64,000 nucleotides of DNA. It comes from a virus. Its lineage: Duplodnaviria > Heunggongvirae > Uroviricota > Caudoviricetes. Location: IMG/VR virus record IMGVR_UViG_3300048573_000453, positions 32,421 to 96,420 of that record; one strand, 5' to 3'. Position numbers and translations under genes: made by a program. The notes under the pieces were generated by a model. That model was not told where the DNA came from, did not search any database, and was given only the letters and a program-made list of their open reading frames with translations. Positions within the stretch are counted from its first letter, which is position 1; every line of letters begins with the position of its first letter. Below, piece by piece: positions 28,243 to 35,501 of this stretch.

Positions 28243-28559
28243 GACATTGGTTGCAATTTTGAGTCCAAAATCATGTTTCCTACTCTATAATTGTCCGCTT
28301 TTTCTGAAATAAAATGACCTACTGCATAGACATGTCCTTCAAATACAAATTTATTAATTTCGTAATCGTACGTAACAATTTCTTCTGTATTGCCTGCAGA
28401 TCCTGGTCCTACCAAGTTCTTTTGATGATTAACCTCGGACCAGCGAAATGATGACTGAAATTCAGCCCATATTGTTTTACCATTTGCTGGTCCGCCAATA
28501 AACAGAATTTGTTGCATAATTTTCTTATAATGTGGACCGTGCCGGGATCGAACCAGCAA
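28224..28559 (-). CDS. hypothetical protein (111 aa)
   Basis: ORF. Confidence 0.45.
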   Translation of the reverse strand: MLVRSRHGPHYKKIMQQILFIGGPANGKTIWAEFQSSFRWSEVNHQKNLVGPGSAGNTEEIVTYDYEINKFVFEGHVYAVGHFISEKADNYRVGNMILDSKLQPMSCVVYH

Positions 28560-28607
28560 CCTGTATGCTTTAGCAAAGCAACCGCTCTCCCAATTGAGCT
28601 AACGGTC
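28532..28607 (-). tRNA. tRNA, anticodon ambiguous (TTGCTAA loop reads GCU; stem weak with 2 extra nt)
   Basis: 7-bp acceptor GGACCGT/ACGGTCC; D-arm GCTC-AATTGGGA-GAGC; T-arm GCTGG-TTCGATC-CCGGC; no encoded CCA. Confidence 0.6.
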
Positions 28608-28738
28608 CGTAAAATTTCTTATTTAGAACCCCAAGTAGCTTAAAACATTCAATCATTGCGATGTAAGAACTAGTAAAGATGTCGGTTCTTTTTTACGTTC
28701 TGAGTTGTTCTTGAAAAACTCGTCAATGTTTTCGTCGT
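28574..28738. repeat. direct repeat copy 1 (~165 bp, ~93% identical to 29567..29747)
   Basis: Alignment read by eye; covers tRNA 5' part, upstream region and a gene remnant. Confidence 0.85.
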
Positions 28739-30262: not shown

Positions 30263-30873
30263 AACTTTACAAATGGGCCAGTTTTTAAGAATTCTGTTAG
30301 GGACGCTCTTCTAGGGTCAATCCATTCGGCATTATTAATTTGTTTTAAGCTTACTAAGAATTCATTTGGCCGATTTCTTCGTTGGTAAAAATATCCATTT
30401 TTCTGTCTTGCAATTCTTCGTGCAAGCATTTCGTAAAGTTTTACAGTTTGCTGGAACTGTTTATTATTTTGGCTATGAAAGTATTCGGCCGAAAAATAAA
30501 ATGGAACGTCACTAATCTTATCAGCTAAAGCATTTAGAACCACCCCATAGACAGTTGACGGTACAACATCAGAAGATTTAGCGGGTTTTAAAAATGCTTG
30601 GTTGCTATCTTCGTTTCTAAAGAAACATACTTCAAAAGCATTTTCGACTGTAACTGCTGGGCCAATCTGTATTATAAATTGCTGTTCGTCCCAAATGAAT
30701 GCTGTTAATTCATAATCCCCATGTTTTTGCCAAACTAGGTCAAGTTTAGTATCAAAAATTTCGTAAAGAAAACTATCCATAATTGCTTTCTCCAAATTTA
30801 AAAACTCCCTGGGCACAAATCCCAGGGAGTTTTTAAACGGTTTTGGAGGAGCATAATAGAATCGAACTATCAC
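30259..30873 (-). CDS. paralog family A protein (204 aa)
   Basis: Shares ...WQ(K/Q)(H/N)G..EL(T/A)(A/S)F... and ...YGVVLNA... with 55903..56469 and 56466..57023. Confidence 0.5.
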   Translation of the reverse strand: MIVRFYYAPPKPFKNSLGFVPREFLNLEKAIMDSFLYEIFDTKLDLVWQKHGDYELTAFIWDEQQFIIQIGPAVTVENAFEVCFFRNEDSNQAFLKPAKSSDVVPSTVYGVVLNALADKISDVPFYFSAEYFHSQNNKQFQQTVKLYEMLARRIARQKNGYFYQRRNRPNEFLVSLKQINNAEWIDPRRASLTEFLKTGPFVKL

Positions 30874-30933
30874 CGTTTCATCAACGGTGGGACGGTTTTC
30901 AAGACCGTGTGTCTGCCATAGACCCTACACTCC
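30844..30933 (-). tRNA. tRNA-Ser(TGA), type II
   Basis: Anticodon arm ACGGT-CTTGAAA-ACCGT; long variable arm CCGTT-GATGA-AACGG; T-loop TTCGATT; 3' CCA encoded. Confidence 0.8.
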
Positions 30934-30947
30934 AAAAATACTTTGAT

Positions 30948-31031
30948 TGGATGCCCCAGGTATCGAACCTGGCATGTTATAAAAACGCGGAGTGTTCAAT
31001 TCCGGCCACCTCCTTAGTGGTATAGACATCC
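30948..31031 (-). tRNA. tRNA-like, type II with long variable region; anticodon ambiguous (9-nt loop ATTGAACAC)
   Basis: Acceptor GGATGTC/GGCATCC; D-arm TACC..GGTG; T-arm CCAGG-TTCGATA-CCTGG; weak 4-bp anticodon stem. Confidence 0.4.
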
Positions 31032-31044
31032 AATTTTAAAACCC

Positions 31045-31095
31045 CTTTGTCCGGCCAGCTGGATTCGAACCAGCGACTTATTGCTTAGCTTACCA
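31045..31095 (-). other. tRNA 3'-half-like segment (T-arm GCTGG-TTCGAAT-CCAGC + acceptor 3' strand TGGCCGG)
   Basis: Base-pairs over 13 nt with the 5'-half-like segment at 31510..31556. Confidence 0.35.
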
Positions 31096-31401
31096 CTATA
31101 GCTTTCGCTACTGAGAATTTTTATCTTCCCGCGCGTGGTCTGAGCTTTGTCTTCATCTGTTCTAGATGGTAGCCGTCAAGTCTCTACACGTTCCTTTTTC
31201 AAGGCTTCGCTCGGCGTTGGCATAAAAATACTGTCCTCTGGATTAAATGTATTTATGCAGCGTTCGCCGAATTTGACTACATTCACAATAAACATCCCTA
31301 TTTATGTGCCCCATTAGAACTGTTTAACATATTTGCTTCTTATTCATTGTCGTAGAATTATTGTAACTCAAATTATTCTATCTAGAATAATAAATTAAAA
31401 T

Positions 31402-31494
31402 GTACTTTGCTCGCCAGAGTGGATTCGAACCACCATTGACTCCGTTACGGTACTACGCTTTAGAAGAGCGCTCCGGTACTGGCGAGCAAAGTAC
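31402..31494 (-). other. inverted-repeat-bounded tRNA-like element (16-bp IR GTACTTTGCTCGCCAG)
   Basis: Contains T-arm GGTGG-TTCGAAT-CCACT and an anticodon-like hairpin GCGCT-CTTCTAA-AGCGT (UCU); no canonical D-arm. Confidence 0.35.
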
Positions 31495-31509
31495 AATCAG
31501 GTAAAAGGT

Positions 31510-31556
31510 TAAATACTCAAAATTACTCTATCCATCTGAGTTATGGCCGGACAAAG
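31510..31556 (-). other. tRNA 5'-half-like segment (acceptor 5' strand CCGGCCA + D-arm ACTC-AGATGGAT-AGAGT)
   Basis: 13-bp inverted repeat with 31045..31057 (CTTTGTCCGGCCA / TGGCCGGACAAAG). Confidence 0.35.
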
Positions 31557-31594
31557 AGGTCTTTCTAATCATATACAAATTTCCAAAACATAAA

Positions 31595-31708
31595 TGGTAG
31601 GCCGTGTTGGACTCGAACCAACGACCAAAGGATTATTCTTCGGCTTCTTTTGTTATTATCCAACAGAATGCCTGAGTCCTCTGCTCTAACCAACTGAGCT
31701 AACGGCCC
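31595..31708 (-). tRNA. tRNA with expanded anticodon region (114 nt; ~38 extra nt between anticodon-stem halves)
   Basis: Acceptor GGGCCGT/ACGGCCT + A + CCA; D-arm GCTC-AGTTGGTT-AGAGC; T-arm GTTGG-TTCGAGT-CCAAC; stem halves GAGGA ... TCCTT are 44 nt apart. Confidence 0.55.
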
Positions 31709-31890
31709 ACACTTTTTGCATTCTCCAATTATACCATACTTTTCTATCTTTACAAATTTATTTTTGTTTTACTAAAGAATAAACAGTTCGATTTCTTCTT
31801 CAGAAGGAGTTTTTCTGCCAAGAATCTTGTAAAAAGCTTTTGAATTTTCTATCCATTCCGGGGAAGCAAATGCAAAATTTACGTTTCTAT

Positions 31891-32238
31891 TCACCCACTT
31901 GTAAAGCGCATCGTATAATTTTTTCGACTTTCAACTAATCCCGAAGTTTTATCAACGGCGATTAAAATGAAATCCGGCCCTAGTTCCTGAAGTTTTGGGA
32001 CAGCAGCATTTAACACTGCCCCAATTAGTTTGGCAGCAGGAATTTCTCCACCTGTAGCCTTATTGGTGCCATTTACAGCAAACCCAAAATCTATAAGATG
32101 TTTTGATTCTACATCGTATTCATCAATTTGTACATGACAAAGTTTGCCATCAATGATAAATTCCCCGATGTGCCTATGCCCAACATTTTCCCATTTGACT
32201 ATTGGTTTAGTGTTTAGAATTTCAAGCAAATTCATCAA
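31891..32238 (-). CDS. hypothetical protein (115 aa), possibly a short family-A relative
   Basis: ORF; ...KLIGAVLNAAVPKLQEL resembles the family-A YGVVLNA segment. Confidence 0.45.
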   Translation of the reverse strand: MMNLLEILNTKPIVKWENVGHRHIGEFIIDGKLCHVQIDEYDVESKHLIDFGFAVNGTNKATGGEIPAAKLIGAVLNAAVPKLQELGPDFILIAVDKTSGLVESRKNYTMRFTSG

Positions 32239-32810
32239 AGTAGATTTTCAATTGAATTAATCATAGGCAGCGCGATATGTTGCTTTCTAACTTTACATTT
32301 ATCCCACGTGTATTTGGTTCCACCGTCTTTTGGGATGTCCCCTCTGCCAAAGGTATACGCAAGCATAAAATCACATCCTGCTGCAACTTTATCATTTCTT
32401 CCAAACATTCCGGAATAACCGTTAGATTTTGGCTCGTATGTAACGAACTGTTTTGAATCTATGACTTCTGCTATTTGTCGGAGCGAATCATACCCTATTA
32501 TTTGGCTGAACTTTTCATGGTAAAAATTGCATGCCCTAGAGGTCTTATTGTAAGCTGCATCGCTAAAACGTTTTGTCTGAAGACAGAAAGGTGCAGGTAA
32601 ATGTAAAATTATATCCTTACATTTTCCTGTCAAAAACAATTCGACAGCTAAATGATCTGCCCATGCAGCTCCACCAGAAATCACCGTATCATCTTCACGA
32701 ACATCTGAAGAAACATCCCGAATCATCCAGCGCCATAATTCTTTAGACATCGGAATCAATTTATCCCTTCCAGCAGTTCCTATAATAGCAATTTTCATCT
32801 CTACTCCCAA
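32235..32810 (-). CDS. SLOG/DprA-like Rossmann-fold protein
   Basis: IAIIGTAGRD ... ISGGAAWADHLAVE pattern typical of the SLOG (Smf/DprA-LOG) superfamily. Confidence 0.4.
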   Translation of the reverse strand: MGVEMKIAIIGTAGRDKLIPMSKELWRWMIRDVSSDVREDDTVISGGAAWADHLAVELFLTGKCKDIILHLPAPFCLQTKRFSDAAYNKTSRACNFYHEKFSQIIGYDSLRQIAEVIDSKQFVTYEPKSNGYSGMFGRNDKVAAGCDFMLAYTFGRGDIPKDGGTKYTWDKCKVRKQHIALPMINSIENLL

Positions 32811-33578: not shown

Positions 33579-33690
33579 CTATTTTGATGTAAGCACTAAT
33601 AACGTTGTCGCTTCATTGTGCTGGGAAATATCTTTCCAAATTTGGTCATCATCGAGATTTTCAGCATTATAATTACGCGGTTCTATAAAA
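33579..33690 (-). pseudogene. C-terminal fragment of a family-B paralog displaced by the IS insertion
   Basis: Encodes ...NYNAENLDDDQIWKDISQHNEATTLLVLTSK*; compare ...IYNGENIDEFFIWNNSEHKKEPTSLLVLTSQ*; no start codon. Confidence 0.6.
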
Positions 33691-34908
33691 ATCTATAAAA
33701 CTCACTAAACGCTTCACAGAAGCTGCCTTTGGAAGAACTTCCTTAGGTCTTACTGCCCCTCCACGTCTGTACTCGGTTAATTCAGCCGAGGTCATGTCAT
33801 AAAGGTCCTTTACACCTTCATTTAAAATATTGATAGCCGCATTTAAGTCGCGATCATGGCTTGAGCCGCATATTGGGCATGTCCATTCTCTTATGGATAA
33901 ATCCATCGTTTCCATTTTATGGCCGCAGCAAGAACACGTCTTACTCGATGGGAACCAAGTATCTATCTTATGAAATGTGCGGCCATACCACCTACTTTTG
34001 TATTCCAGCATTGAAATAAAAGTGGACCAACTTGCATCAAGTATGGATTTTGCCAAACTATGATTCTTAACCATGTTTTTAACTTTTAGAGTTTCAGTAC
34101 AAATAACATCGTAATTTTCTATTAACCAACTCGACAGGTTATGGTAAATGAACTTGCGCTGATTTACAATATCCCTATGGATTTTCGCAACTTTGATTTT
34201 CTGTTTATTGTACCTTTTAGAACCCTTTGTTTTTCTGCTTAAATGCTGCTGTGACCGTTTTAGTTTAGATTGGTTTTCTCTGAACCATCTTGGATTGGAA
34301 ATTTGCGTACCATCACTTAAGATGAGCAAGTTTTTCAATCCGAGATCAATACCGATTGAGCGACCAGTATTTTGTTTCAATTCTATTTCTTCTTCAACTA
34401 AAATTGAAACAAAATATTGCCCACTTGGATTTTTAGAAATTGTGACAGATTTTGGTTTACCAGTAAAAGGTCTATCTATGATTACTTTTACTGGAGACAT
34501 TTTTGGAAATTTAATAAAACCTGCTTTAATTTGTTCAAATTTTTCTAAATGCATTGAAGCCGCAGGAATCCTAAATGATTCATTGCCACCCCGCTTTTTA
34601 AATTTTGGTCTTCCCAGTTTAGCTTTACGGTTTTTAGAGAAAAATTGCTTTTTGGTTTCATCAAAATCGATTCGTTTTTGCTGCAAGGCATAACTAATAG
34701 CATCTTTAAGCCATGGAAAGTTCTCATCATCTTTCAAAATCTTCTCATTCATTGGTCGGTTTGGGCCTTCTTTTGAAAAAGAATTAAAATTGGCAACTAA
34801 CTGATTCCAAATGAAGCGAACACATCCAAAATTTTGGAGAAGAAATTTCTCTTGCTTATTATTAGGATATATTCGGTACTTAAAAGCCTTAAGAACTGTA
34901 TTTGTCAT
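33673..34908 (-). CDS. tnpB: TnpB (OrfB) RNA-guided-nuclease-family protein of an IS607/IS200-605-type element
   Basis: N-terminal KYRIYPNNKQEKFLLQNFGCVRFIWN; zinc finger CSCCGH...CPICG; RuvC-III DRDLNAAINI. Confidence 0.85.
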   Translation of the reverse strand: MTNTVLKAFKYRIYPNNKQEKFLLQNFGCVRFIWNQLVANFNSFSKEGPNRPMNEKILKDDENFPWLKDAISYALQQKRIDFDETKKQFFSKNRKAKLGRPKFKKRGGNESFRIPAASMHLEKFEQIKAGFIKFPKMSPVKVIIDRPFTGKPKSVTISKNPSGQYFVSILVEEEIELKQNTGRSIGIDLGLKNLLILSDGTQISNPRWFRENQSKLKRSQQHLSRKTKGSKRYNKQKIKVAKIHRDIVNQRKFIYHNLSSWLIENYDVICTETLKVKNMVKNHSLAKSILDASWSTFISMLEYKSRWYGRTFHKIDTWFPSSKTCSCCGHKMETMDLSIREWTCPICGSSHDRDLNAAINILNEGVKDLYDMTSAELTEYRRGGAVRPKEVLPKAASVKRLVSFIDFYRTA

Positions 34909-35501
34909 TTTTCTGAATCGTTAGCTAATTCTTGAACCAATTTTTCCGTATTCCGTTTGCTGCGGCGCTGTCCATAAATTCTTGCGCAAAAAGATGTAAT
35001 GACGGACACAAAATCCTGAACAATGTCTTCTTTATCTGACTCTACATTATTCACTACATCGATTTCAATGCCATTAGAATTTAATAGCTGTTCAATATAA
35101 TTGAAACCGAATCTAGTCAGCCGATCCTTATGTTCAACTACTAATTTAGTAAAATCCTGTTCCTTAAGAAGCTTTTCCAGTTTTGGCCTCTTATCATTTA
35201 GTCCAGATCCAAATTCTGTAACGACTTTAGCAACTTTGTAACCTCTAGCGTTACAATATGAAATCAACCTTTCGGATTGAGTCTCAAGATTAGATTTATT
35301 TGCAGTCGAAGAAACACGACAATAAATCACTACGCGTTCTTCTTCCTTGGCCTTTATACCAAGGAATTTGTTGTAAGTTTCAATATCAACATAATTCATT
35401 GAACCAATTTTATGAAATTGTATTTTTCCAGCCTTCTTCCAATTCCACAGCGTCATCCTGGTTACACCAAGATCTGCAGCAAATTTTTTAAGTTTAATCA
35501 T
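34905..35501 (-). CDS. tnpA: IS607-type serine recombinase transposase TnpA (MerR-like HTH + resolvase catalytic domain)
   Basis: VIYCRVSSTANKSNLETQ catalytic Ser region; ...VTEFGSGLNDKRPKLEKLL...VVEHKDRLTRF. Confidence 0.8.
   Translation of the reverse strand: MIKLKKFAADLGVTRMTLWNWKKAGKIQFHKIGSMNYVDIETYNKFLGIKAKEEERVVIYCRVSSTANKSNLETQSERLISYCNARGYKVAKVVTEFGSGLNDKRPKLEKLLKEQDFTKLVVEHKDRLTRFGFNYIEQLLNSNGIEIDVVNNVESDKEDIVQDFVSVITSFCARIYGQRRSKRNTEKLVQELANDSEK

Follow-up and report, generated by a model that had tools for sequence, protein, structure and literature searches.

A group I intron in a phage tRNA-Arg(UCU) gene carries a second tRNA(UCU) gene from a phage family that lacks the cloverleaf D-arm

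On the minus strand of the 64,000-nt stretch of viral DNA analysed here (positions 32,421 to 96,420 of IMG/VR record IMGVR_UViG_3300048573_000453; hereafter the window), a phage tRNA operon contains one gene inside another (31563..31038). The account that we consider rather probable is that an outer tRNA-Arg(UCU) gene, split by a group I intron and damaged, houses in the P1 loop of that intron a horizontally acquired tRNA(UCU) gene, which would now supply AGA decoding. The nesting itself varies on arrangements that are already known. Of greater importance may be the fold of the nested gene, which belongs to a conserved phage family, defined here by covariance model R1, whose members have a short helix around the anticodon arm in place of the D-arm, a tRNA shape that is apparently undescribed.

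Architecture of the nested locus

The features of the locus are as follows (- denotes the minus strand; L numbers denote the loci compared).

31728..31755 (-), promoter-like site upstream of the tRNA cluster: TTGTAA, 16-nt spacer, TG-extended TATAAT; a match only, at 10/12 of the sigma-70-type consensus
31544..31563 (-), 5' arm of the outer long stem: 13-nt leader (31563-31551) and acceptor 5' strand CCGGCCA (31550-31544)
31505..31550 (-), outer tRNA 5' exon: acceptor strand, U8 A9, D-arm, A26, AUUUUGAGUAUUUAAC, C32 U33 U34
ends 31525 (-), outer D-arm ACUC-AGAUGGAUA-GAGU, after CCGGCCA and UA; read directly
31510..31520 (-), 11 excess nt, UUGAGUAUUUA, in the 5' strand of the outer anticodon stem
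31089..31504 (-), group I intron of ~416 nt, Azoarcus-like (IC3-like), from the RF00028 match and homolog alignment
31313..31504 (-), expanded P1 loop (L1), 192 nt, by comparison with L061, L101, L143 and L092
31401..31495 (-), inner cassette: 17-bp perfect stem (31495-31479 with 31417-31401) around the inner tRNA
31410..31485 (-), inner non-canonical tRNA(UCU), from Rfam tRNA and R1 matches
31390-31373 (-), hairpin UUAUUCUAGAUAGAAUAA in L1
31372-31367 (-), second guide-like motif, UUUGAG, in L1
31306..31312 (-), candidate internal guide sequence GGGG(CAC), at a position homologous to UUAGGAGCAC of L061 and UUUGAGCAC of L092
31305-31288 (-), putative P2 hairpin, AUAAA with UUUAU, from sequence only
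31287-31281 (-), J2/3, UGUGAAU, by homolog alignment
31280-31275 (-), P3 5' strand, GUAGUC; four compensatory pairs in P3
31142..31270 (-), ribozyme core overall, from the Rfam match, homolog alignment and covariation
31270-31265 with 31216-31211 (-), P4; P5 likewise in the core
31204-31193 (-), P6, with GAAA loop
31184-31179 (-), P7 5' strand, GAGACU
31174-31169 (-), P3', in the ribozyme core
31168-31154 (-), P8, in the ribozyme core
31146-31142 (-), P7', AGCUC, after J8/7 AAGACAAAG
within 31089..31139 (-), P9 domain, ACCAC with GUGGU, inner hairpins including UAGC-GAAA-GCUA, and tail AAG
31089 (-), terminal guanosine (omega-G), the last intron nucleotide
31050..31088 (-), outer tRNA 3' exon: C35 U36 A37 A38, anticodon stem 3' strand GCAAU, variable loop AAGUC, T-arm, acceptor, A73
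31074-31058 (-), outer T-arm GCUGG-UUCGAAU-CCAGC
31057-31051 (-), outer acceptor 3' strand UGGCCGG, with A73 at 31050
31038..31049 (-), outer trailer CAAAGGGGUUUU, pairing with the leader; CCA not encoded

Both outer tRNA halves proposed in an earlier sequence-only reading are thus present on the minus strand, with the acceptor strand, UA and D-arm of the 5' half, and the T-arm, UGGCCGG and A73 of the 3' half, legible in the sequence. That reading had given the complementarity between them as 13 bp; it does run past the acceptor stem, and a repeat search extended it to 20 nt at 90% (arms 31038-31057 and 31544-31563, 486 nt apart). The inner inverted repeat is perfect as described, with arms of 17 nt (31401-31417 and 31479-31495, 100% complementary) instead of 16. 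A minimum free energy fold of the whole 526 nt recovered both long stems and several core helices, and P1 was absent from it. No ORF was found on the coding strand within the intron. The neighbouring tRNA(CAU) gene carries a 37-nt insert, which is too short for a ribozyme.

The region is real sequence, and we reject an assembly artefact because four independently assembled contigs from other samples agree with it: three match at 100% and the fourth, L024, at 99.84% (a 2-nt difference). Several contigs from related samples break inside the region, where assemblers struggle. The window genome encodes phage proteins of bacterial viruses; a megablast of 16 kb gave no relative among GenBank phages, and the best protein match was less than 50% identical. 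Five loci reached through a neighbouring protein (43-50% identity) had no tRNAs or introns nearby, and a second neighbouring protein used as query gave no related loci. The exact D-arm pattern of the outer 5' half had 0 matches in viral contigs, and the exact T-arm-acceptor pattern of the 3' half had 0 matches in viral, metagenome and genome collections.

A group I intron separates the halves

Between the halves, the ~300 nt earlier read as AT-rich and non-coding make up a group I ribozyme core (41% G+C). Covariance-model searches, the check proposed for intron and tRNA families, returned a full-length match to RF00028 at 31336-31140 (40.8 bits, local E=1.3e-8, below the gathering score of 50) along with the Rfam tRNA match to the inner element (36.8 bits). 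In alignment A2, comprising the window and the homologs L061, L143, L101, L009 and L092, 95.7% of cells were paired and 29/55 pairs had compensatory changes, a level reached by 0/500 shuffles. This alignment supports the acceptor, T-arm, P3, P4, P6, P7, P8 and P9, with covariation against the five homologs in P3, P4, P6, P8 and P9. On this evidence of homology the window intron has the conserved group I catalytic core (P3-P8, J8/7, P7), and the interrupting element is, judged by its sequence, a group I intron. The suggestion that a tRNA gene had been disrupted by an intron-like element was therefore essentially right, and homologous intron-containing tRNA-Arg(UCU) genes were found in other phages; L061, L101 and L143 each spliced in silico to a canonical tRNA-Arg(UCU).

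Such genes are not rare. At least 119 IMG/VR contigs contain the motif GTGTAGAGACTTGACGGC. Among 120 loci scanned, ARAGORN called a tRNA split by an intron in 73 (L009 and 72 motif-bearing loci); Leu(UAA) predominated, with Lys, Phe, Arg and further types also represented. Group I introns are thus very common in phage tRNA genes, and annotation pipelines miss such genes, so phage tRNA repertoires are under-counted. Two of these introns contain an ORF, in P6 in L063 (695 nt) and between P1 and P3 in L128 (662 nt), and the tRNA intron of L165/L166 has three T-arm-like hairpins in its P6 loop.

By homology the intron lies at anticodon position 34/35 of the outer tRNA, between U34 and C35. We place the 3' splice site at G31089/C31088 (slashes mark splice sites) because reading of the exons fixes the site in L101, L070, L092 and L143: the context of G31089, ...AUAGUGGUAAG/CUAAGC, is the same in L101, L070 and L092, which have the 3' end motif UAGCGAAAGCUAUAGUGGUAAG/ in common, and L143 has GUAGUAGGUAAG/. 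The putative 5' splice site follows U31505, where AACCUU/UUACCUGA (AACCUU/UUACC) resembles GCCUU/UAACCGAGG in L143 and AACCUU/CAAUU in L061. A GGGG guide (31312-31309) could pair with C31508 C31507 U31506 U31505 as P1, and GAG (31369-31367) fits the same site; U31505 can thus pair with G31311/31312 or with G31369, each helix being only 3-4 bp. Other approaches to splicing were discarded. Complementarity alone gave several AU-rich candidates for P1, including a 9-bp UGAGUAUUU/GGAUGUUUA competing with P2, and P10 did not discriminate among them. Brute-force splicing was too permissive, as ARAGORN accepted 222/5,280 exon-end combinations with many different anticodons. A rule-based search (5-bp anticodon stem, U before the 5' site, G before the 3' site) had a single solution (5' site after 31521, 3' exon from 31093, loop AAGCUAA with A33) and none with U33; we dropped this model, as the homologs fix the 3' site at G31089/C31088 and the loop as CUU/CUAA.

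The window intron is unlike its relatives in three respects, namely an insertion of ~190 nt in the P1 loop, 11 extra exon nucleotides and an altered P7' strand. The P1 loop is 192 nt long versus 5-9 nt in the relatives, a length that may hinder folding, and the sequences flanking the inner cassette within it had no homologs among the fetched loci. The P7 3' strand is AGCUC in the window versus AGUCC in all five homologs and the sibling contig L024, the difference being CU for UC at 31144-31143; AGCUC still permits a 5-bp helix, and a ribozyme with this swap may still work. Guide pairing is weaker in the window than in the relatives, and P10 has been lost, no P10 pairing being seen for the window intron.

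The outer tRNA gene appears damaged

Judged by sequence, the halves form the 5' and 3' exons of a gene of the tRNA-Arg(UCU) type. Ligating them in silico restored the acceptor, D-arm, T-arm and the loop CUUCUAA, but not the anticodon stem, because of 11 extra nucleotides: AUUUUGAGUAUUUAAC stands between A26 and C32 where 5 nt are expected, and the excess UUGAGUAUUUA is part of a near-tandem repeat (GAGUAAUUUU and GAGUAUUUAA). The ligated exons did not form a functional cloverleaf. ARAGORN called no tRNA in the splice product and called tRNA-Arg(UCU) once the 11 nt were removed, and RNAfold folded the spliced RNA without an anticodon stem. The extra nucleotides, the weakened guide without P10 and the dinucleotide swap in P7' together suggest that the outer gene is damaged, and it is probably decaying. 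Against decay counts the intactness of its acceptor, D-arm, T-arm and 20-bp leader-trailer stem, which would be unexpected in an old pseudogene.

The inner tRNA belongs to a phage family with a replaced D-arm

The inner element scored 36.8 bits against the Rfam tRNA model RF00005 (gathering score 29); in this match the D-arm is deleted and the variable region carries 17 inserted nt. ARAGORN called no tRNA in the element. Its acceptor (UCGCCAG with CUGGCGA) has 7 bp, its anticodon arm (31471-31467 with 31459-31455) has 5 bp and the 7-nt loop CUUCUAA with U33, a purine at 37 and the anticodon at 31464-31462, and its T-arm is at 31434-31418. A D-arm of the usual kind is lacking, with just 7 nt (UACCNNA) between acceptor and anticodon stems. 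Three of these seven pair with the 3' side of the anticodon arm, in the window as C31475 G31474 G31473 with C31450 C31449 G31448. The sequence-only reading was therefore correct about the T-arm and the UCU anticodon hairpin; the D-arm it reported missing is replaced by a conserved 3-bp helix. It had overlooked the break in the outer anticodon stem and the membership of the inner element in a widespread family. G73 (31410) is followed by CAA in place of CCA.

Model R1 defines what we call the phage D-arm-rearranged tRNA(UCU) family, with 49 loci (73-104 bits) and 37 distinct sequences, none of them annotated. The consensus reads UACC-N1N2-A, an anticodon arm with loop CUUCUAA/C, AG-xy-N2'N1'G-UAAY-GGAGUCAAU, and a T-arm with GGTTCGAATCC. 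Across the 37 distinct sequences 99.3% of cells were paired, each pair is backed by covariation, and 16/20 pairs had compensatory changes; in the 3-bp helix enclosing the anticodon arm 100% of cells are paired, the variants being GC/AU/UA and CG/GC/UG/AU. The anticodon loop is invariant save for one CCU variant, also a reader of an Arg codon. The 20-nt 3' connector holds an invariant UAAYGGAG that resembles a D-loop with G18, G19 and A20. An N73-CCA end is encoded in 32 of the 37 distinct sequences. Most members are free-standing in phage tRNA clusters, and cultured Pseudomonas phages such as PAK_P2 (copy at 89782-89859) and phiPsa397 carry members; the family occurs in phage and metagenome contigs only, with no match in 185,579 species genomes.

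The window copy scored 99.7 bits on R1 and keeps every position conserved in the family. It is identical at 72/73 nt to the free-standing, CCA-bearing gene of L169/L185 in another phage, and by this identity the inner gene is a recent arrival by horizontal transfer. A tRNA-derived minihelix, one of the options raised earlier, does not describe it: it is a full-length tRNA with an anticodon arm, from a conserved family whose members mostly encode CCA. The window copy alone lies inside an intron (0/48 other members). Five of the 49 loci end without CCA, among them the window copy and L006, and these two are the only members with a long leader-trailer stem; because of this stem and the lack of CCA, their maturation may differ from the family norm. 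The extended stem as a property of the intron was discarded as an idea, L006 having an 18-bp leader-trailer stem with no intron present.

Arginyl-tRNA synthetase (ArgRS) recognizes A20 and C35 as identity elements. Because the UCU/CCU anticodons and the GGA motif match these elements, the family probably has arginine identity, and the inner tRNA(UCU) is very probably an arginine tRNA. Searches of the 64-kb window gave no second tRNA(UCU), and AGA accounts for 17% of Arg codons; the inner gene is probably the working AGA decoder.

Proposed expression and competing explanations

The layout described above, its homologies and the covariation of the intron core and of the inner tRNA family are observed; the expression route that follows is proposed. 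Using an external guanosine, the intron would cut after U31505 (a site placed by homology), and the U31505 end would be joined to C31088 after the terminal G31089, rebuilding the loop CUUCUAA with the junction AACCUU-CUAAGCAAU. The P1 loop presumably grew from fewer than 10 nt to 192 nt and now holds a complete tRNA(UCU) gene, which would be transcribed within the precursor or the excised intron. An initial cut in the 17-bp stem may be made by host RNase III, RNase P would make the 5' end of the inner tRNA, and a 3' endonuclease or exonuclease would trim it after G73; the host CCA-adding enzyme would complete it, a step proposed because CAA replaces the CCA encoded in most relatives. Most likely, at present, the inner tRNA would supply AGA decoding and the outer tRNA would no longer do so.

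It is unlikely, in our estimate, that both tRNAs work, with the intron self-splicing, the outer tRNA-Arg(UCU) functioning despite its 11-nt bulge and the excised intron yielding the inner tRNA, as a deliberate arrangement that ties two AGA decoders together in their output. In its favour, every helix of the ribozyme core is intact and shows covariation against the homologs, the P7' variant keeps 5 bp possible, the outer acceptor, D-arm, T-arm and leader-trailer stem are perfect, and the anticodon loop is rebuilt exactly as in L061, L101 and L143. However, the spliced product has no foldable anticodon stem, guide pairing is below the strength seen in relatives with P10 lost, and the arrangement is unique among R1 members. 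The ribosomal P site contacts tRNA pairs 29-41 and 30-40, and the bulge falls at 29/30, in the ribosome-contacted part of the stem. Slightly less plausible still is that the inner element is not used here as a tRNA but acts as a structural or protein-recruiting module of the intron, stabilising P1-P2 or attracting tRNA-binding proteins. The window copy does lack an encoded CCA and has its ends locked in the 17-bp stem, tRNA-like modules may recur given the hairpins of L165/L166, and synthetase help of the CYT-18 type is established for fungal introns (PMC4275181). Yet the body matches a free-standing CCA-bearing gene at 72/73 nt and keeps the family's conserved positions, anticodon loop included; L006 has the same CCA-less long-stem form outside any intron; and related introns work with a P1 loop of 5-9 nt.

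We regard as very improbable an archaeal-style split or permuted tRNA, or a bulge-helix-bulge intron, whose halves are joined by endonuclease and ligase. The complementary flanks beyond the acceptor stem do recall Nanoarchaeum split tRNA genes, which have long flanks of this kind, and the insert in the neighbouring tRNA(CAU) is too short for a ribozyme; but a complete group I core lies between the halves, which are collinear and follow each other in the usual order along a single strand, in silico splicing of homologous genes uses sites of the ribozyme type (after U, after G), and the genome has bacterial-virus proteins and a sigma-70-like promoter. A long-range pre-tRNA processing structure, as once suggested, was likewise not borne out, as the pairing consists for the most part of the split tRNA's acceptor stem together with leader-trailer pairs. 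To chance repeats or a mis-assembly joining pieces of different tRNA genes we give next to no credence: contigs from related samples do break inside the region, but it is spanned by the four contigs, each from a different sample, the perfect 17-bp repeat and the 90% 20-bp repeat fall precisely on acceptor stems of tRNAs, and the interior is a coherent ribozyme with a coherent tRNA.

Within the preferred nested-gene account, we tentatively suggest a further reading of the inner element, as an undescribed structural class of working bacterial-world tRNA with a topologically rearranged D-arm, captured by a tRNA intron. Here the strand that normally closes the D-stem would come first, the anticodon arm would be nested inside the D-helix, and the D-loop-like UAAYGGA (A14, G18 G19, A20) would come after the D-helix and lead into the T-arm. 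If this is true, the RNA could still be L-shaped and charged by ArgRS, and would evade standard tRNA finders and perhaps also host anticodon nucleases or other tRNA-targeting defences. A single transcript would then hold an old (canonical, decaying) and a new (rearranged) AGA decoder, a snapshot of tRNA gene replacement.

Comparison with known systems

Group I introns in bacterial tRNA anticodon loops are known from cyanobacterial and plastid tRNA-Leu(UAA), Azoarcus tRNA-Ile, Agrobacterium tRNA-Arg(CCU) and Patescibacteria tRNA-Asn/Asp (PMC3984707; PMC13011429). The window intron resembles these in its putative anticodon-loop site after U, compact IC3-like core, terminal G and lack of an endonuclease, and shares position 34/35 with the tRNA-Leu(UAA) intron. 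The core motifs GUCAAAUUCGG, GUGUAGAGACU and AAGAnAAAGUCC we take to be Azoarcus-like. Unlike the bacterial introns, it resides in a phage, is about twice the usual length through a 192-nt P1-loop insertion with another tRNA gene, and has a damaged exon and a P7' off consensus. As in introns with homing-endonuclease ORFs (e.g. L063, L128), a peripheral loop tolerates a large insertion, although the cargo here is an RNA gene and not an endonuclease. Like Nanoarchaeum split and Cyanidioschyzon permuted tRNA genes, the outer gene has distant halves with complementarity past the acceptor stem; in those systems the halves are separate transcripts or circularly permuted and joined by protein enzymes, whereas in the window they are collinear in one transcript with a ribozyme between them.

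tRNA genes inside group I introns are known from fungal mitochondria, in Ophiostoma minus atp6-i1 and cox1-1281 (PMC7902536), and our literature search for D-arm-less or rearranged phage tRNAs, or for a tRNA nested in a tRNA intron, found only fungal mitochondrial cases. There too a tRNA gene sits in a group I intron and must be cut from intron RNA; those introns, in contrast, interrupt mitochondrial protein-coding genes and also have LAGLIDADG ORFs, whereas in the window the host gene is a tRNA with the same anticodon, the setting is a bacterial virus and the nested tRNA is non-canonical. The window thus offers a clear case of a ribozyme intron with RNA-gene cargo, sited inside a same-anticodon tRNA.

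The most important point is the fold of the nested gene, a conserved, unannotated, covariation-supported phage family that is not a cloverleaf; a 2024 paper describes all known bacterial tRNAs as cloverleafs (PMC11551756). Like D-armless mitochondrial tRNA-Ser, R1 members lack a conventional D-arm and have an anticodon that reads AGN codons, and a connector replaces the D-arm and, with the 3' side, lengthens the anticodon arm. Unlike tRNA-Ser, they keep a full T-arm with a GTTCGAATC loop, have a 20-nt 3' connector in place of a short variable region, are probably of arginine and not serine identity, and come from viruses of bacteria and not from mitochondria. If R1 RNAs are charged and used, the known tolerance of the bacterial translation machinery widens, and they would offer a natural non-canonical scaffold for synthetic biology; they may also be relevant to the escape of phage tRNAs from defences that target tRNA.

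A group I intron separates two tRNA halves

The minus strand holds the two tRNA halves described in the sequence-only reading, each a textbook part: the 5' half carries U8, A14, G18 G19 and A21, and the 3' half consists of variable loop, T-arm and acceptor strand. The repeat search also recovered the two complementarities of that reading, the outer one longer than the 13 bp first given and the perfect inner one at 17 rather than 16 bp.

31550-31524, minus strand: outer tRNA 5' half, CCGGCCA-UA-ACUC-AGAUGGAUA-GAGU-A (read from sequence)
31079-31050, minus strand: outer tRNA 3' half, AAGUC-GCUGG-UUCGAAU-CCAGC-UGGCCGG-A (read from sequence)
31038-31057 with 31544-31563, minus strand: outer inverted repeat, 20 nt, 90% complementary (repeat search)
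31401-31417 with 31479-31495, minus strand: inner inverted repeat, 17 nt, 100% complementary (repeat search)

The inner element, noted earlier as lacking a D-arm, matched the Rfam tRNA model at 36.8 bits (gathering score 29) in an alignment with the D-arm deleted; ARAGORN called neither the outer nor the inner gene in the window. The nested locus is real sequence, since it recurs in four contigs assembled from other samples, of which three are identical (100%) and one differs by 2 nt.

The intron-like insertion allowed for earlier was recovered by a permissive Rfam scan of 30600-32000, in which the group I intron model matched over its whole length at 31336-31140 (E=1.3e-8 in that search), but its 40.8 bits fall short of the gathering score (50). 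The core (GUCAAAUUCGGCG ... AUGCCAACGCCGAGCGAAGCC ... GUGUAGAGACUUGACGGC ... AAGACAAAG) has the pattern seen in small tRNA introns of the IC3 type, e.g., the Azoarcus tRNA-Ile intron. We aligned the window with five related loci (L061, L143, L101, L009 and L092) and counted pairs against a structure written from window coordinates, with shuffled and slid controls; 95.7% of cells were paired, with compensatory changes in 29 of 55 pairs, and no control came near these values. Covarying elements were the acceptor stem, T-arm, P3, P6, P8, P9 and P9b.

The 18-mer GTGTAGAGACTTGACGGC was present in at least 119 IMG/VR contigs (loci L042-L159, at least 119 contigs with the common group I core motif). 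With introns allowed, ARAGORN found an intron-split tRNA in 73 of 120 loci scanned (72 with the core motif, plus L009), of which 44 were Leu(UAA) and the rest included Phe, Lys, Arg, Asn, Pro, Ser, Thr and Glu; most introns were 183-260 nt. This lineage is thus common in phage tRNA genes. Standard ARAGORN settings miss the intron-split genes of these 73 loci, mostly tRNA-Leu(UAA) (34/35). In L009 the tRNA-Asn(GUU) is clean and its intron sits at 36/37, and ARAGORN labelled the split tRNA of L045 a stop-codon reader (UUA anticodon).

Predicted splice sites and departures from relatives

The nearest relatives at the intron 3' end were L101/L070, L143 and L092, and in P4-P6 L061. L061, L101 and L143 follow the pattern stem-CUU/intron...(G)GUAAG/CUAA-stem (slashes mark junctions), and all three yielded a canonical tRNA-Arg(UCU) when spliced in silico. 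The window 3' end, UAGCGAAAGCUAUAGUGGUAAG/CUAAGCAAU, is identical to this pattern, which places the terminal G at G31089 and the 3' exon from C31088 (C35 U36 A37 A38, then GCAAU, AAGUC and the T-arm). The 5' junction, AACCUU/UUACCUGA, matches GCCUU/UAACCGAGG of L143 and AACCUU/CAAUU of L061, which puts the predicted 5' splice site after U31505. The anticodon loop rebuilt from these predicted sites is CUUCUAA, with anticodon UCU. L061 and the window outer tRNA also have C1-G72 and the D-loop AAUGGAUA in common.

The window copy departs from its relatives in several respects. Its P1 loop, from 5' splice site to guide sequence, is 192 nt (31504-31313) versus 5-9 nt, and the outer exon A26-C32 interval is 16 nt (AUUUUGAGUAUUUAAC) where 5 are required for pairing with GCAAU, the excess belonging to a near-tandem repeat (GAGUAAUUUU and GAGUAUUUAA). 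ARAGORN found no tRNA in the spliced product, and RNAfold folded the spliced RNA with the anticodon stem absent; minus 11 nt (31520-31510), the product was called tRNA-Arg(UCU) with one A-C mismatch. The L061 guide UUAG-GAG complements the entire mature loop (P10 + P1), whereas at the homologous window site, AAUG-GGG-CAC (31312-31306), the P1 pairing possible is wobble-rich and P10 is absent; UUUGAG (31372-31367) is a second, alternative guide-like motif. P7' reads AGCUC in the window versus AGUCC in all five homologs and the sibling contig L024, and a 5-bp helix with a shifted bulge can still form. In combination, the altered P1 loop, anticodon stem, guide and P7' suggest decay of the outer gene and perhaps also of its intron; the intact arms and a P7' swap that preserves pairing leave room for residual activity. 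This CU/UC swap in the P7 3' strand (window 31143-31144, L024 2102-2103) is the sole polymorphism among the sibling contigs in 1.25 kb, with the consensus AGUCC in L024 and AGCUC in the window and three other contigs.

The inner element belongs to a phage tRNA family

BLAST matched 60-nt stretches of the inner element at 87-95% identity in cultured phages, including Pseudomonas phages PAK_P2, phiPsa397 and the vB_PpuM series and Limnohabitans phage DC31, all unannotated and within or adjoining tRNA clusters. The retrieval pattern GGAGTCAATGNNGGTTCGAATCC matched 13 IMG/VR contigs and 36 metagenome contigs, and the 185,579 species genomes of bacteria and archaea searched (GTDB) gave no match. 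A covariance model of the family, R1, scored 49 copies (37 distinct) at 73-104 bits, with one match in the window; the family is unannotated in 11 GenBank phage records.

L001-L003, L005-L017, L169-L204: family loci, 49 copies of a putatively D-arm-rearranged tRNA(UCU)
Fold, 5' part: 7-bp acceptor stem; U8 A9; C-C-N1-N2-A
Fold, anticodon arm: 5-bp stem, loop CUUCUAA/C
Fold, after the anticodon arm: A-G-x-y-N2'-N1'-G, then UAAY-GGAGUC-AAU
Fold, 3' part: 5-bp T-stem with loop UUCGAAU; acceptor 3' strand, N73, CCA

A helix, C-N1-N2/N2'-N1'-G, encloses the anticodon arm, and all sequences (100%) pair in it: one position varies as GC/AU/UA and the following one as CG/GC/UG/AU. Across the family alignment 99.3% of cells were paired and 16 of 20 pairs showed compensatory change, a covariation score reached by 0 of 500 shuffles. 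Covariation thus backs the inner tRNA fold as well as the ribozyme core. N73-CCA ends 32 of the 37 distinct sequences. One member (L203) has a CCU anticodon, likewise reading an arginine codon, and the invariant GGA following UAAY looks like G18 G19 A20; A20 and C35 are ArgRS identity elements. From these arginine anticodons and the GGA we interpret the family as tRNA-Arg of a non-canonical kind. The D-arm may be rearranged rather than lost, as N2'N1'G-UAAYGGA resembles the D-stem 5' strand plus D-loop, and CCN1N2-A the D-stem 3' strand plus position 26.

HNH-like or GIY-YIG ORFs directly adjoin the family gene in five loci (L001, L002, L003, L007 and L011; HNH scores under the Pfam cut-off, GIY-YIG E=1e-9), and such neighbours are usual for phage tRNA clusters. 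In other phage tRNA clusters R1 also gave over-long (96-102 nt) tRNA-like matches of 24-42 bits, at L009 5134-5229 (-), L014 582-683 (+) and L007 3125-3226 (-); these may be additional tRNAs of non-standard form or with inserts.

Nesting and proposed processing

A gene that stands free in L169/L185 and encodes CCA shares 72/73 nt with the inner copy, and no homologs of the inner copy's flanks were found among the retrieved loci; the inner copy was therefore acquired recently. It differs from that gene in its first acceptor pair (U-A instead of G-C), its end (G73-CAA instead of A73-CCA) and 10 additional leader-trailer pairs. None of the other 48 members is intron-embedded, and only L006 has a comparable leader-trailer stem (18 bp, without CCA or intron). 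Endonuclease ORFs form large peripheral-loop insertions in the L063 and L128 introns, and a tRNA group I intron at L165 2761-2877 (identical in L166) has ~106 nt inserted in its P6 loop, with three T-arm-like hairpins (CUGAGUUCGAUUCUCAG, GUGGUUCGAUUCCAC and CUGGUUCGAAUCCAG) closed by UCAAA/UUUGA; the insert matched tRNA-Sec weakly (20 bits). tRNA-like modules may therefore recur in phage tRNA introns.

The locus shows that one transcription unit can hold an intron-split tRNA-Arg(UCU) gene and, in its P1 loop, a second tRNA(UCU) gene, and we are highly confident of this anatomy of a split tRNA with a nested family tRNA. A guanosine would initiate cleavage after U31505, and the exon end so formed would be joined to C31088. 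RNase P would release the inner tRNA 5' end, possibly after RNase III cuts the 17-bp stem, and 3' trimming, CCA addition by the host enzyme and charging by ArgRS would follow; the inner gene, not the outer, would be the working AGA decoder. Anatomy, splicing, inner-tRNA processing and charging, and AGA decoding taken as a package seem to us somewhat favoured.

Group I introns in bacterial tRNAs are well known (PMC3984707, PMC13011429), and tRNA genes within group I introns have been reported from fungal mitochondria (PMC7902536). A review gives mitochondria as the only known source of D-arm-less tRNAs and does not mention phages (PMC7609411), and a 2024 paper gives known bacterial tRNAs as all cloverleaf (PMC11551756). 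Our incomplete literature search found neither this phage tRNA family described nor any case of one tRNA gene inside the intron of another, which is absence of evidence only. The nested locus is a variation on known kinds, with a fair chance that the tRNA family goes beyond this.

Genomic context

The phage from which the window derives is tailed and uncultured, and no close relative of it was found in GenBank. AGA makes up 17% of arginine codons (49 long ORFs), and no further tRNA(UCU) was found in the 64-kb window. The nested pair lies in a tRNA cluster.

31755-31728, minus strand: promoter-like site (promoter consensus match)
31708-31598, minus strand: tRNA(CAU) with 37-nt insert (sequence reading; Rfam 57.6 bits)
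31563-31038, minus strand: nested pair (sequence reading)
31032-30947, minus strand: odd 'tRNA-Phe' (sequence reading; ARAGORN)
30933-30844, minus strand: tRNA-Ser(UGA) (sequence reading)
30838-30797, minus strand: hairpin, then U-run (sequence reading)

The tRNA(CAU) insert lies in the anticodon loop (CUCA-GGCAUUCUGUUGGAUAAUAACAAAAGAAGCCGAAGAA-UAA), contains a 7-bp hairpin and is too short for a ribozyme; the exons are nearly identical to those of the L162/L163 tRNA(CAU), which has a 259-nt group I intron at 33/34, and the insert may be what remains of an intron, or else a small hairpin element. The 86-nt 'tRNA-Phe(GAA)' at 30947-31032 (-), an ARAGORN call that fell below the Rfam tRNA threshold, combines a normal D-arm (CCAC-UAAGGAG-GUGG) with C37 and an unpaired variable region of 15 nt, and lacks CCA. 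A tRNA with a GCU anticodon (serine codon family) at 28532-28608 (-) has a short variable region; bacterial SerRS expects a long variable arm. Three minus-strand genes without CCA (outer, 31045-31049; inner, 31403-31409; 'Phe', 30937-30943) have the motif CAAAG(UA) in the trailer, after the discriminator region, and the related CUAAGUA follows the L006 family copy; the motif may be a shared processing signal. Two kb upstream of the tRNA cluster, and in all sibling contigs, is an IS605-family element (33673-35501, minus strand) with a TnpB-like ORF of 411 aa (OrfB_IS605 and Cas12f1-like TNB domains) and a resolvase-type ORF of 198 aa.
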